Assembly: GCF_003704095.1 (NCBI RefSeq)
Contig: NW_020847347.1
Coordinates: 1-64,000 of the forward strand
From: Pocillopora damicornis
Taxonomy: Eukaryota
DNA: 64,000 bases
Reading direction: 5' to 3'
The notes below the pieces were generated by a model. It did no database searches. It worked only from the letters and a program-made list of their open reading frames with translations, and was not told the origin of the DNA. Both the position numbers and the translations under genes were made by a program. Shown here one piece after another: positions 21,024-38,394 of the stretch (position 1 is its first letter; every line of letters starts with the position of its first letter).

Positions 21024-24000
21024 TTACGAAATAACACAAATTCCTCCCTTTTGTGGGGGAGGAGGTGGTCTGTTTGCGAGAGCAACAATTTGCTTCTGAA
21101 GCTCGACAATTTGGTCATTTCTTTTTTCCATTGACTGCCGCATATGCTCCATTGACTCCTTAAAGGTTTGATTCTGCTGGACAATTGCCTCTCGATCCTT
21201 TCGCAGCTCCTCCATGTTTGCTGTCATCATATTGTGCATTTGCTCCCTTTGGGCTTCCATGTCCGCTTTAAACTGCTCTTCCAAGCGTTTCCTGTCTTCC
21301 TCTTGCTTAGCTTTCAGAATTTCCATCTGGAACACAAAACAAAATTCGATAATTGACATCTAAAACATTTTTTAAGCTTATGTCTACTCAATCTTTCAAT
21401 TGAACTGGAGCATAGGAGAAAATGGCAATTAATCAGACTTAGGTGGGCGGTGGAATAGGGACATCGGTAGAATGGTATTAGTATTGCACAAACATGGAAG
21501 TAACCCACGAAAAAGTGATCATGGATGATGTGCTAACTCTTTGTATGTTACCTTCAAGTAACACCCGTGTAAAGTAAAGAAACAAAGCAAATACAACAAA
21601 AAACAACAGCAACAACGGCAACAAACAAAATCACCCAATAAACCAAAAAGCAAACGAAAAAAAAAAAACAGATACGAGGAAACCCACCTCTTTTTCTTTT
21701 GCACGCCGCTCCTCTTCCAACCGAGCATTCTCTTCCTAGAGTTCAATCATAAATCGTTTCGCATCATTGATATAGGTTGCAATCGGTATTTCAATGAGAA
21801 CCAATTTTTGCCGCAAATGCAGTGGGATTTGTAGCATATTCCATAAACCATGTTTTTACCATTACTATTAAAATTTTTGTAATCACCAATCGTCATCATT
21901 ATTATTACTAATTTTTACATAATATACATAATCTGCACAATAAAGTAAAATTTCAGACGATAAATTGTGCTTTAAAAGCTTTATATAATTTTAAAACTGA
22001 GGTAAGAACATACAGCAAGAAAAACACGACGCCTCCGACAAAGGCATGATACCAAATTCTGCTTTTGTTTTTCCAATGCTAGCGCTTGAGGCAAGTTTGT
22101 ACAATTACCATTAAGCTGCTTTACTGTAACTCCACGCTCGACATATGTTTACCCTCAAGAAATTTTTTGACACAAGCGTAAGAAAAAAAATTTAGGGAGA
22201 CTGATTGAAATAAAACTAATCAGGTAACACGTAGGTATGTGCGTGGGCAATAGTATCTCTTTCGCTAATTATTAAAAGTGTCACCTCTATTCGTTGTCTC
22301 TCCTGCTCCTGACGAGCCTTTTCTTGTCTTTCGAAAGCCAAAGACTCGTCGAAGTCTTTCAGCTGTTGTAGATACGCCATGTGTTTCTCCATCTCTGCCT
22401 GCATTTCCTACAATGCCCAAATAAGAGTTTAGAAGACTTATTTGGCTTCACGAATAAACATAGAGATTTGTAGGGATATGTCCTATAACTTAAATCCGAT
22501 TATTCCTTTTTGCCGATGGTTTGCCCACTACTTTGCTTATATCTTGCTCGACTGCACTGGACTGATTTGAACGTTTTCAACTGATCAAAACAAATCCCAC
22601 ATACACCTACCGGATGAAACTCGTAAAACACTTGAGCGCAAATGTCCTTGGCTCCCTTTGCGTCACGTTTAAATCCCTGTTCAATTGCTGAGTAGCCACC
22701 AATGATCTGAGCAAAGCTCACTGATGCTCCATCCTTGCCGCTTAGCTCCCTCAGAATGGGGTCCAAGAGTTCTTCTTTCAAGGCCCTCAGCAATTTATGG
22801 CATTGTTCTTTCGTTTGTCGATTGTTCTCACCCTGCCATCGTTTCAACGCCTCGTTCATACTATCCTAAAAAGAAATAACGATGCTTATTTCATAAGAAT
22901 GTCGTAGTTTTAGTATGAAACGTAGGCGTCCTCAGGACACTAAAGTACTGAGTATTCCTAACAGGAGCTGCGCTTATGAACCTCTGAGCCAATACTAACT
23001 CATGAAAAACTGCTGATTTGCCACACCTGTACTCAAAATGCCATTGAATTCATGAACTACCCACGGATGAATATCCTTCAACCTTCAAAAGCTTGTTAGG
23101 TCATTATGTGAGAAAATTTTTATAATCAGCACATTCATAATAACACTGTAATGTTGCAGTCGTACCATGAGCTCATCCAAATACTTCTCGCTACTCGAGG
23201 CGGAAACTCCCACAGTTTCTTCCTGAAAAATCCTCATGCTTTCTCCAATAGCTCTTTCCTGAACTTGACGAATGTTATCGCTGTCACAAGGCAGTAAACC
23301 ATCCAGCTCTGACGTCATTACACTTTCATACACCCTTAAGGCGGCAAGTTTCGCCTCAGTGCACTTAGTGTGCACAAAGGTCTCCCACGCACTCTGCACA
23401 CTGGGTACTGTGCCAGGAGTGTTCAAGGCAGAAACGTAAATATTAACGAGAGCTGCCAGAGCTATGATTATAGAAAGATAAAAAATTAATTTCAGTGAAA
23501 AATTATATTTAATTCATTACGTAGTCAAGATCAAAGGAAAAAATAATTTACGGTCACTAAATATCTTTGACGGGTATGACAAAGGCGGGTTTTCCATCTC
23601 AAATTTCGTCTCTTTTGTACAAATTCTACAAAGTTATAAAACGTTATAAGCTTAGATTTTATGGGATTTATGAAAAACGCAAATTTTTGAGCTGTACTCT
23701 AAAGATTCACACTCAGAGCTATCTTTATAATCAGAAACTCTGGACATCTGGCGCTAAAAAAGCTGTCTGCATCTATGATCAATTTTTCTGATGACTTTTT
23801 TCCATATAAGCCAAAGTCACAAAATAAACGGAAAAAAGGTGTCCTTGCTTGATATGAATGACTCTGAAGGAAATGATCCCAATTCAATTCCCAAGGCCTT
23901 TTCGTTGAAAATAAGTTATGAAGTAAAGATCTGATTTTCATTTGTCCTGGATTTTCAACTGGACCGTGAGAGGTCATACTGTGCACTGCGTCCATTCCCT

Positions 24001-35500: not shown

Positions 35501-38394
35501 AGCAATCAGAAACGTAAACATTTCTACAGGAAAAATCTTCAAAGGCGACGAATTAGGAACAAACTATTGTACTAAAGTGAGCAATGATATTAAAAGTTCG
35601 GCTGGAATGTAAACATAATTTTGATTCCGATGCAATTTGTGGATAGAAAATAAGAAACAAAAAAAAAAGAAAATTGAAAGCTTTCGGGAAATCTATTTCT
35701 GTCATAGGAAAATTCCTGACAATAGCGATAAGTGCGGACAAAATAGAGACATAAAGGGGCACTTAGATTTTCTTCATGATGTATCGTCTTGTTTTGATAC
35801 TGTTTAGCGCTCGCCACCATGGTAACAAGCTACATCACGGCTTTAAACACCCCAGGAACAGTTCCCAATGTCCAAAACGCCTGGGATGTCTTTGTCTCGA
35901 CCAAATGTACCCAGGCCAAAACGGCTGCCGTTGAAGAATACGACAAAGAAATGGAAATGGAAATGTCTGGAAAACTGCCGTGTGAGAGAGACATCATCCG
36001 TCAAGCTCAGCTGGCAGCTCTTAAGCGAGCACTGAAAGTGTTTGAGGAAGAGACGTTTGGAATATCCACCGCTAATATAGAAAAGTACCTAAACGAGTTA
36101 ACGGTTAGTAGGATTTCCTACACTTATGTGCTACTGACGCTTGAAAACAACTTCGGTTGTTTTATACTCTTGAGTTATTACTTTTTTCTCTAAAGAGAGG
36201 ATTATTTGCAGTGCTAAATAAATATGTCTCTCTTCCTGAGAGTCACCATCGTAGTTTTTGTCAAGGGGTCGTATGGAGGGTTCTCCTTACGTGAACCAAT
36301 GTTCAGTAATTACCAATAAAGCTCCTTGAGAGCAGCAAAACTGCCTATGAGTGATGAACTATCGATAAATTTTACCGGCACTGCAAATGACACAACATAT
36401 TACTCATTGTAAGGTTCTCTTTGTTAACAAATTTTGAAATAACTCCGATAGGTGTACATGGAAAATGGCTTGAATAGCTGGCAAGAACGAAACACCCAGC
36501 TTACCAAGGACAGCTGTAAGCAGCTGCTGATTGGCCTTAAGCATCATCACCTTGATCCAGTTCTGATTCAATTGAGGGGAAAGGATGGCGCAAAAGTTTC
36601 GTTTGCTGAAGTAATGGGCTGCTACAGCGCTATCGAGCAAGGATTTAAGGCAGAGGCCACCGGGGCAGAGGACGTTTGTGCGCAAGTTTTTCTTGATTTC
36701 CACCCCGTGAGTCACTTGCACTAATCCAAGATTCTTTGATTGAGTGTTACGAAAACATCGACGGCCAATCAAAACAATTAAAAGAAAATATCACAGGGAG
36801 CCAGAAGTATATCAAAATAAACGCATATGACATTTCTAAATCGCGAAAAATGTCTATGGTTGAGCCGCGACTAGGTTTAATTTTGCATATGTTTGGCGTT
36901 AGTTTTCCAGATCAATTTTAGAATCAAGAAATGAAAAAAAAATGCAATTAATTGAGGTACTAACATGAAATCTGCCCTGAATCGACACCTTTTCTTCTAG
37001 AAACTAGACACGACGAGAGAGAAGGACGTTGTAGCGGGGTTAAATTATTGATTAGGGTCTATGTATATTTCATGATCATCACTGATGCTCTCTTAATCTA
37101 TACGGCTCCGGCGTTAAATTGAAAATTGATTTCATTTTATTAACTACGAGCTTTATATTACATCACGCATGTTTAGATCTTAGCGGTTTTTGCTTAACTT
37201 TATTTGCTTTCTTTAATGCAGGAGCTGCAAAATGAGATGGAGAAGCACATGGAACATTTGCAGCAACTCAAGGATTTTGACGAGAACCTGGCGTACGAAA
37301 AAGAAGCGAGGGCACAAGAAATGGAACAAAGAAAGAGAGTTGAGGTATAAAAAACAAGCAGATAAACTCAGCAAAAATGAACAAACAAAGCTGAAAAAGA
37401 TAAACAATGAAGAAAAAGAAAGCCGCTAAGTACCATTGACAAAATAAATCGTACTCACTTGTAGCATGTGATAAAAAAAAAGCGTTCCTTGGACTGTACC
37501 ATATGAAGCTTAATATGTAGTTGTTAATTCATTATCATCATCTTGTGTCTTTGATGTTTAGGAGGAGAAGGCACGTCTGGAAGAAGAACGAATTAGAAAG
37601 GAGAAGGAGGTGTGCTCAATTTTTTTCTCTGTAGTAAACTGTGAGAAGAAAAAATTGAAACGTTAGCGTGTTGTTGAGACTTCATTTTGGTTTTCCTCGA
37701 AGGAGAGGGGTCAAGAAGACCCAATGACTCTTCTCTCAATGGCTACGTTGCTCGCTTCCAATCAAACCCACAAATAGTTACAAAGACTTGATATAGTGCA
37801 GACAAAGAACAATTCAAACAGCTTTGTGTTTCTGTTTTTGAGCGTCATGTGCTTGCTAAAAAGGTGGTGTTCTCTCACGAGCTTTTTGCTTTTTGCAAAA
37901 CGTCTGTTACTGGAGTTGTCTGCAAGGCCAAGCTATGCTTAAAAACGTCCCTTTAAATTAAAGTCTTTCGCGACTTTTTGCTTAAAACTTAACCATTTCA
38001 TAACAATGCTGCGTATTGCATAGGGGTAAAGTTTAGAAGTGATCCATTAATTGTTCTTTCATTAACTGGTCTATTTTCTTCAATTTAGATGGAGCTTTTA
38101 AAAGTGAAACAAGAGGAAGATAGACGACGCCTGGAAGAACAACTGAGATCCGACATGGAAGATCAGAGGGAGCAAATGCAGAACATGATGAGAGCAAACA
38201 TGGAGCAGTTGCACAGAGAAAGACAAAACGTCGTGGATCAGAACAAGACACTGCAGGAGGCTCTGTCGGGCATGCAACGCTCGATGAATGAAAGAAATGA
38301 TCAGATAAAAAATCTTCAAAGGCAGATTCAGCAAATTGCAAGCAGACCACCACCATCACCACCCCCAAAAAAGAAGGGATGTGTTGTCATGTAA
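32534..38394 (+). CDS. GBP: Guanylate-binding protein family GTPase, paralogue B, 654 aa, KKKG-CVVM terminus
   Basis: Exons 32534-32681, 32851-33008, 33646-33818, 34335-34530, 34870-35131, 35808-36103, 36452-36706, 37222-37344, 37562-37609, 38089-38394 (1965 nt). Same intron positions and GTPase motifs as paralogue A. AATAAA at 38641. Confidence 0.95.
33819..34334 (+). other. U12-type GT-AG intron in GBP-B
   Basis: 5' site GTATCCTTA; branch-like TTTCTTGAC (34309-34317) ending 17 nt before the intron end; same codon position as the GBP-A U12 intron. Confidence 0.88.
34004..34258 (+). mobile_element. Internally deleted copy of the palindromic repeat, inside the U12 intron
   Basis: ATAATAAGCTCGGTTATGTACGCATTCTGATTGGTTCTCACTTATGATC...AAACAAATAGATTCCAAGTT matches the reverse complement of 27226-26912. 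Confidence 0.8.

Follow-up and report, generated by a model that had tools for sequence, protein, structure and literature searches.

A 64,000-nucleotide stretch of the Pocillopora damicornis genome (positions 1 to 64,000 of contig NW_020847347.1, assembly GCF_003704095.1; hereafter the window) carries two guanylate-binding protein (GBP) genes, A and B, that stand head to head. In the interpretation that we favour, and to which we give about an even chance, they are an old stony-coral GBP pair that is served by one IRF/NF-kB promoter and forms mixed GTP-dependent dimers, with B as the anchor and A as a facultative partner. The novelty lies mainly in the promoter.

Two GBP genes in head-to-head orientation

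A sequence-only reading of this DNA had proposed two head-to-head GBP genes with the same exon structure, diverged helical domains and different prenylated tails. The gene models built on the window DNA confirmed the two genes, their coordinates and their quoted tails, and gave products of 653 and 654 amino acids. Each gene has ten coding exons in identical phases, canonical GT-AG introns and zero internal stops.

21024..27390, minus strand: GBP-A coding region (ATG 27390, stop 21024; 10 exons; 653 aa; sequence and RNA splice joints)
27246-27390, 26328-26485, 25619-25791, 24681-24876, 24096-24360, 23166-23461, 22611-22865, 22285-22407, 21688-21735, 21024-21326, minus strand: GBP-A coding exons
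32534..38394, plus strand: GBP-B coding region (ATG 32534, stop 38394; 10 exons; 654 aa; sequence and RNA splice joints)
32534-32681, 32851-33008, 33646-33818, 34335-34530, 34870-35131, 35808-36103, 36452-36706, 37222-37344, 37562-37609, 38089-38394, plus strand: GBP-B coding exons

The B product equals database protein P0133 letter for letter, and the source of P0133 assigns it to Pocillopora damicornis. RNA contigs from several studies contained eight of the nine A coding joints among the joints listed, the exception being A intron 2, and eight of the nine B coding joints; the ninth B joint is a loose end. The two proteins are identical at 441 of 650 aligned residues (68%), and the helical domains have indeed diverged: identity is 54-61% in exons 6-8 and 10 versus about 90% in exons 2-3, and across four species pairs exons 6-8 and 10 of A and B are 44-66% identical.

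Both P0133 and P0145 (98% to A) matched Pfam PF02263 (GBP; 147.6 and 156.6 bits, respectively) and PF02841 (GBP_C; 67 and 82 bits) above cut-off. Among 27 A and B proteins, GPCRKGKS with the catalytic arginine was found in 25 (two rows differ), and ETMG with the switch I threonine, DSEG and LRD were found in all 27; the motifs align to those of human GBP1/2. A sequence search matched both proteins to human GBP2, GBP1 and GBP5 before the atlastins (best E 2e-37), and Foldseek with the predicted fold placed human GBP1/2/5 on top and the atlastins after them (E 4e-14). The AlphaFold2 model (mean predicted local distance difference test score, pLDDT, 72; predicted template modelling score, pTM, 0.58; GTPase domain partly of low confidence, at 147-189) has one long helix at 484-636, and its C-terminal helices are soluble, with no atlastin membrane anchor. 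Judged from sequence, A and B are ordinary members of the GBP family.

Intron 3 of each gene has features of a U12-type intron.

24877..25618, minus strand: A intron 3 with the signature of a U12-type intron (donor GTATCCTT; TCCTTAAC, like a branch site, close to the 3' end; joint 24876-25619 in RNA)
33819..34334, plus strand: B intron 3, U12-type (donor GTATCCTT)

Compared with the U12 consensus (RTATCCTT donor, TCCTTAAC-like branch site), the branch site is exact in A and degenerate in B. The same genome has 13 exon-3 matches, in tandem GBP clusters, and the U12-type donor also opens intron 3 of seven further exon-3 copies. Another coral GBP clade (C2981, C4096; L004-L011) has exons 1-3 fused, lacking introns 1 and 2, and keeps the U12-type intron 3. 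In Acropora muricata, P0044 (listed with P0063 and P0001) is an A-type GBP model joined to a PNP_UDP_1 domain (PF01048, 1015 aa), which may be a gene-model artefact, and the PF02809 matches carried by other coral GBPs may have the same origin.

A compact two-way promoter

The sequence-only reading had also proposed co-regulation from a shared region. Conserved interferon-stimulated response element (ISRE) and kB-like sites speak for it, but the region concerned is not the 5,143-bp gap between the two start codons. RNA contigs revealed a non-coding first exon in each gene, spliced across a 3,523-bp intron in A and a 1,117-bp intron in B, and the 5'-most contig ends (31118 and 31278), which do not map starts, lie about 160 bp apart, i.e., less than 1 kb. 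The MITE-like repeat (miniature inverted-repeat transposable element) in the A leader intron accounts for much of the ATG-to-ATG distance.

27391..27424, minus strand: A 5' untranslated region (UTR) within the first coding exon (RNA joint 27424-30948)
28587..30011, no strand: MITE-like repeat with terminal inverted arms, within A's 3,523-bp 5' UTR intron
30948..31118, minus strand: A non-coding first exon (RNA runs X2, X7, X6; 5' end given by the longest contig and not by start mapping)
31063..31084, plus strand: composite element, Ets-like AAACAGGAA, then ISRE/IRF site 1 ACTTTCACTTTC (= GAAAGTGAAAGT on the minus strand)
31096..31102, no strand: conserved TGCGCA box
31119..31277, no strand: gap between the 5'-most RNA contig ends, bidirectional promoter core (RNA contigs)
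31119..31130, plus strand: kB-like site GGGTATTTCCCC
31271..31282, plus strand: ISRE/IRF site 2 ACTTTCGTTTTC, 60 bp before B's first donor
~31278..31332, plus strand: B non-coding first exon (RNA joint 31330-32448; 5' end approximate)
32450..32533, plus strand: B 5' UTR within the first coding exon (RNA contigs)

The joints of the 5' non-coding exons were present in three of four RNA runs, from three studies; the fourth run had no spliced joints at all. A and B are both spliced in the same runs, whose contig depth is unfit to rank or correlate the genes.

Two upstream ATGs with short frames lie in each spliced leader (30948-31118 for A; 31278-32533 for B), and they might dampen translation, depending on the true starts. 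A palindromic high-copy repeat was observed in A intron 1 (26905-27111), with a related piece in B intron 3 (~34000-34260).

We retrieved 67 metagenome loci with exon 2 as the query. Two of them, L001 and L003, contain both genes, head to head; for L001 the nearest named B is from Porites (80%), and L003 is at 95% to Orbicella. The sole non-coding intergenic part that aligns to any of the 67 loci is 31056-31104, to which six loci align. This block reads AAACAGGAAAA(C/G)TTTC(A/G)CTTTC, in which an Ets-like box adjoins tandem GAAA repeats, an ISRE/IRF site (PMC7819612). ISRE 1 is present in all six loci that cover the block, and ISRE 2 also in L001, L003, L005 and L010. Spacing is kept as well: in four sequences the distance of ISRE 1 from the first donor of A is 127-142 bp, and in the window, L003 and L005 ISRE 2 comes 55-60 bp before the first donor of B. 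The A first-exon donor itself is conserved in L001, L003 and L010. The kB-like site stands between the two ISREs and, in L001, directly before ISRE 1. We take the TGCGCA box to be NRF1 half-site-like.

The pattern ASTTTCRYTTTC matched twice in the 64-kb window, both times in the promoter (0.30 expected; 3 of 100 shuffles), and 13 times in nine of the 67 loci versus 1.0 expected; seven of those nine are A/B promoters. A looser core, TTTCRNTTTC, gave 12 matches versus 4.6 expected. The pattern SWTTTCRNTTTC was rejected: it matched twice elsewhere, at chance level, and missed the promoter sites.

The genome has four matches to the IRF domain PF00605 above cut-off. Mammalian GBP expression is driven by IRF1 (PMC7819612). 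In anemones, cGAMP and poly(I:C) induce GBPs, and the induction of one Nematostella GBP is reported to depend on NF-kB; in Stylophora, GBPs go up after cGAMP treatment (PMC8713801, PMC8476169, PMC13319465). The promoter sequence suggests that IRF and NF-kB are likely to control it and that A and B are likely to be switched on together.

The composite 20-mer had four genome matches and none with the reversed control. Because two of the four, the window and a stray copy of the same locus, are one locus, they are weak evidence for a regulon. One further match, at G000:C1441:181076-181113 (L068), is an Ets-ISRE composite with an adjacent kB site directly before an intronless Maf bZIP gene; Nematostella immune cells are marked by Maf factors (PMC13319465). 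No gene was recognised near the fourth, at G000:C4289:221454-221473 (L071). In the genome, an ISRE with a kB site following within 30 bp occurs twice, at the Maf locus and in a tandem repeat that is full of gaps and in which no gene was found. Among four contigs examined with other GBP clusters, one (C116) has an ISRE upstream.

C-terminal tails

The tails differ in their basic residues.

21024..21071, minus strand: A tail with proline run, one lysine and CaaX CVIS (protein ends RPPPPPQKGGICVIS)
38344..38394, plus strand: B tail with proline run, KKK and CaaX CVVM (protein ends RPPPSPPPKKKGCVVM)

Each of the 11 distinct B tails ends in Met and carries 3-7 K/R among the eight residues that precede the cysteine, and 0-2 K/R occur in each of the 16 distinct A tails whose CaaX is proper (one Acropora A model, lacking such a CaaX, was left out of this count). 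The split between a basic and a non-basic tail, proposed from the window, is thus old and clade-wide. The last residue of the A CaaX is Leu in nine of the 16 (Orbicella, Oculina, Montipora, Acropora and others) and Ser in seven, the pocilloporid clade. The outgroup tails of Nematostella and Actinia combine a proline run with one or two lysines and a final Leu. These sequences show that the A tail is ancestral and, by prediction, geranylgeranylated, that the polybasic-Met tail of B is derived, and that pocilloporid A has switched to a farnesyl-type CaaX.

Under the CaaX rule, CVIS and CVVM both predict farnesyl, so that in the window genome the A and B tails differ by charge only. The different prenylated tails of the sequence-only reading therefore hold for the basic patch; different prenyl groups in this species are contradicted by the rule. 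Among close Pocillopora relatives, the A tail at 21045-21050 varies between QKGG, QKRG and QSGG.

The proline run (3-7 prolines) is ancestral and disordered in the AlphaFold2 model; the likeliest reading is that of a spacer behind the long helix. It had been suggested to be an SH3, WW or EVH1 docking site. By the usual definitions, neither WW (PPxY, PPLP) nor EVH1 ([FLWY]PPxP) motifs occurred in any of 32 tails, and docking of these two kinds is rejected for that reason; SH3-type patterns occurred in 24 (class I in 22, class II in 16) and are lost in the other eight.

Predicted dimers and gene conversion

B residues 1-435 and A residues 1-434 (P0157, 99% to A) were modelled with GTP and Mg. 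The complex scored 0.79, whereas the best of three controls scored 0.01; runs agreed in at least 90% of contacts, and partner pLDDT was at least 77. Of 78 solved complexes, 51 reach the mark applied to this score; of 108 mismatches, 2 do. The model makes an A:B heterodimer through the GTPase face structurally plausible, and gives no preference between hetero- and homodimers. More telling than the score is the sharing of the predicted interface: A and B have 35-40 of its 44 residues in common in four species, versus 67-76% in the rest of the GTPase domain. With seven other stony-coral GBPs, 24-27 of the 44 are common, and with three anemone GBPs, 28-32. There are 12 fixed differences between A and B, one of which (B E84, A F83, in switch I) lies in the predicted interface.

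Part of this face lies in a tract of exon 3.

33714..33818, plus strand: gene-conversion tract in B exon 3, towards its 3' end (A counterpart 25619-25723; covers the codons of B residues 148-156 in the predicted dimer face)

Within a species, the DNA of A and B is 91-92% identical over the 3' half of exon 3, and that of orthologues is 79-86% identical. Informative sites (three loci, sites counted over pairs) grouped exon 3 by species, 31 to 8, and exon 2 by paralogue, 28 to 3. Identity and grouping together show recurrent gene conversion.

Age and distribution of the pair

Trees were built on chosen rows (58, 67 and 18); near-duplicates and fragments were left out, and there were no vertebrate rows. 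The 18-row tree recovered an A clade (90/92) and a B clade (100/100) as sisters (96/97), with the same topology in the 58- and 67-row trees. Both clades include robust and complex corals, so the duplication is older than that split, which dates back more than 200 million years. The GBP phylogeny that the sequence-only reading had proposed as a check thus places the two genes in old sister clades. The A/B split is nested in the stony corals, with anemone, octocoral and amphioxus GBPs outside, which speaks against A and B being one-to-one orthologues of vertebrate GBP1 and GBP2. Among the close outgroups is Nematostella P0213/P0221, whose tail resembles that of A. A placement of Acropora A inside B was rejected by the approximately unbiased (AU) test (p 5e-5). 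A and B have consecutive accessions in four genera (P. meandrina, Stylophora, Orbicella and Montipora capricornis); the head-to-head orientation in other corals is shown by L001 and L003 alone.

Comparison with known systems

Human GBP1 and GBP2 (GB1/RHD3-type GTPases; PDB 1F5N, 6K1Z, 7E58, 8CQB) are the best sequence and fold matches of the coral pair. They share with it the domain order, the P-loop arginine, the DxEG and RD motifs and the CaaX, and in both systems one paralogue combines farnesyl with a basic motif and the other is of the geranylgeranyl type without one (for the human proteins, GBP1 and GBP2, respectively; PMC10104521, PMC7240152). Because the A/B split lies inside the stony corals, this tail logic is convergent. 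The coral proteins differ from the human ones by their low identity (about 21%), by QGE at the position of GBP1 K61-63, by the head-to-head arrangement of their genes on one promoter and by the proline run before the CaaX. We take the E and M of the coral switch I to occupy the positions of GBP1 H74 and K76.

The coral promoter resembles vertebrate ISRE/IRF-E and kB promoters in having the tandem GAAA (GAAAGTGAAAGT) beside a kB-like site at the 5' end (PMC7819612). Unlike them, it is common to two divergent genes, has an Ets-like box joined, and belongs to an animal that is not known to have interferon. The GBPs of Nematostella and Stylophora that respond to 2'3'-cGAMP and poly(I:C) are of the same family, and the parts covered of those reports contain no promoter motif, bidirectional pair or tail analysis (PMC8713801, PMC8476169, PMC13319465). 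A search of the open-access literature, with subscription papers outside it, returned no account of the A/B pair, its promoter or its tails.

N-Ras ends in CVVM, K-Ras4B has a polylysine and CVIM, and Rac1 has a proline and basic stretch. The B tail has the same CaaX and charge pattern as these Ras/Rac hypervariable tails. Unlike them, it stands on a large dimerising GTPase after a long helix, and the likeness is chemical, not one of descent.

Weighing the explanations

In the mechanism that we propose, immune sensing of nucleic acid or bacteria would activate IRF and NF-kB, and both genes would be turned on from the shared promoter. GTP is predicted to bring the products together, as homo- and heterodimers, through the shared GTPase face. 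B would be farnesylated, and its farnesyl group and lysines would choose anionic surfaces (damaged vacuoles, the bacterial envelope or the inner plasma membrane). A would have just its lipid, ancestrally geranylgeranyl and in pocilloporids farnesyl, and may get to those surfaces partly via B. By analogy with human GBP1, which anchors GBP2, B is likely to be the membrane anchor. More tentatively, stony corals may have independently evolved a GBP1/GBP2-like anchor-and-partner immune coat on a pre-interferon bidirectional ISRE/kB promoter, with gene conversion keeping the dimer face compatible.

Several observations weigh against an anchor-and-partner pair on a shared immune promoter. The contigs leave the starts unmapped, and the longest 5' contig of A includes ISRE 1. 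The pattern ASTTTCRYTTTC was written after the alignment was seen, which makes its chance figures optimistic, so that the evidence is the conservation and not the chance figure; taken by itself, the kB-like site stays within chance (13 of 100 shuffles), and its position shifts in L001. GBP dimers have already been solved, so the A:B pass may come from likeness to them, and it does not tell which family member binds; gene conversion may simply stem from high similarity in an inverted pair. A duplication confined to pocilloporids is not formally rejected by the AU test (log-likelihood 325 lower, p-AU 0.058). In a profile search of protein collections (117 hits), the six Acropora rows all fell in A and none in B, and the named Porites rows all fell in B and none in A. 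These single-gene lineages imply that the partnership is facultative, not obligate, and the earlier claim that A depends on B is not supported.

A and B might instead be co-induced and yet independent, each forming homodimers, with B on the plasma membrane or other anionic surfaces through farnesyl and lysines in the manner of K-Ras4B, A on endomembranes (geranylgeranyl, uncharged) and no recruitment; we regard this as possible but rather doubtful. It fits the apparent retention of A alone in Acropora and of B alone in Porites, the ancestral anemone tail of A, which necessarily worked without B, the divergence of the helical domains in the four species pairs and the fixed E84/F83 difference in the predicted dimer face. 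Polybasic and CaaX tails are, moreover, common among non-immune GTPases (PMC7240152). The dimer face of A and B, however, is more alike than either is to other coral GBPs and has in part been repeatedly homogenised, and by the CaaX rule the farnesyl-type tail of pocilloporid A, with little charge, would be a weak lone anchor.

A strict copy of the human system, in which B coats cytosolic Gram-negative bacteria via lipopolysaccharide (LPS) and A needs recruitment, seems unlikely to us. The tail logic is that of human GBP1 and GBP2 (PMC10104521, PMC7240152), squirrel monkey GBP2 acquired bacterial targeting via a convergent basic motif (PMC7240152), and the heterodimer model passes. However, K61-63 of GBP1, which are required for efficient LPS and liposome coating (PMC11746146), have no counterpart in the coral pair: the position reads QGE in 27 of 27 A and B proteins, which also counts against our own interpretation, and the B GTPase domain is strongly acidic (net charge -16). 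The role of B as an LPS or bacteria binder in the sequence-only reading is accordingly left without support. Lineages with one gene only, and a B motif that is stable in kind across families where the primate motif is under positive selection (PMC7240152), argue in the same direction. That the pair is an ordinary inverted duplication kept by inertia, with generic core-promoter motifs and tails without any division of labour, appears very improbable. Tandem GBP clusters are common, as the 13 exon-3 matches in this genome illustrate, and bidirectional promoters typically carry Ets and NRF1-like boxes; but both ISREs keep their order and spacing while the other intergenic DNA no longer aligns, and the tail chemistry is clade-wide, with zero exceptions in 11 B and 16 A tails.

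A stray copy and the neighbourhood of the pair

A second, truncated copy of the block that comprises A exon 1, the promoter and B exons 1-3 lies at G000:C2735 ~48930-54160 (L089, L076). It is merulinid-like, not pocilloporid: its A exon 1 DNA is 97% identical to L003 and 76% to the window, its introns are 68-85% identical to merulinid-like loci, and its B exons 1-2 contain one stop. The copy directly adjoins a Polinton-type element (~31.5-48 kb; integrase, polymerase B and PLA2-like matches), and no terminal repeats that enclose it turned up in the stretch examined. The copy may come from horizontal transfer between coral families or be foreign DNA in the assembly.

In the window, tRNA-like sequences occur at 9658-9776 and as an inverted pair just past the B 3' end (38799-38871 and 39003-39075); the pair is probably a tRNA-derived repeat. 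The neighbouring genes (1097-1913, 16179-20088 and 41633-62756) are a ribosomal S17-family gene, a filamin-type-repeat gene converging on A and four intronless rhodopsin-family receptors.

Implications

The pair bears on how interferon-stimulated genes were switched on before interferon. To our knowledge, corals are without interferon, and induction of cnidarian IRFs and GBPs is known; the open-access cnidarian IRF/GBP papers that we searched showed no cis-element. With the 400-bp, phylogenetically footprinted two-way promoter described here, the question of IRF and ISRE can be put to a direct reporter test in a coral or an anemone. The pair is also a second, independently evolved case of the polybasic anchor of GBP1, with A, beside B, as the ancestral-tail control, and bears on how corals distinguish pathogens, damaged vacuoles and symbiont compartments. 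If the more tentative idea of an independently evolved immune coat is true, the promoter would lend itself to testing pre-interferon IRF immunity, and it could mark a wider coral regulon, as the 20-bp composite before the Maf gene hints.

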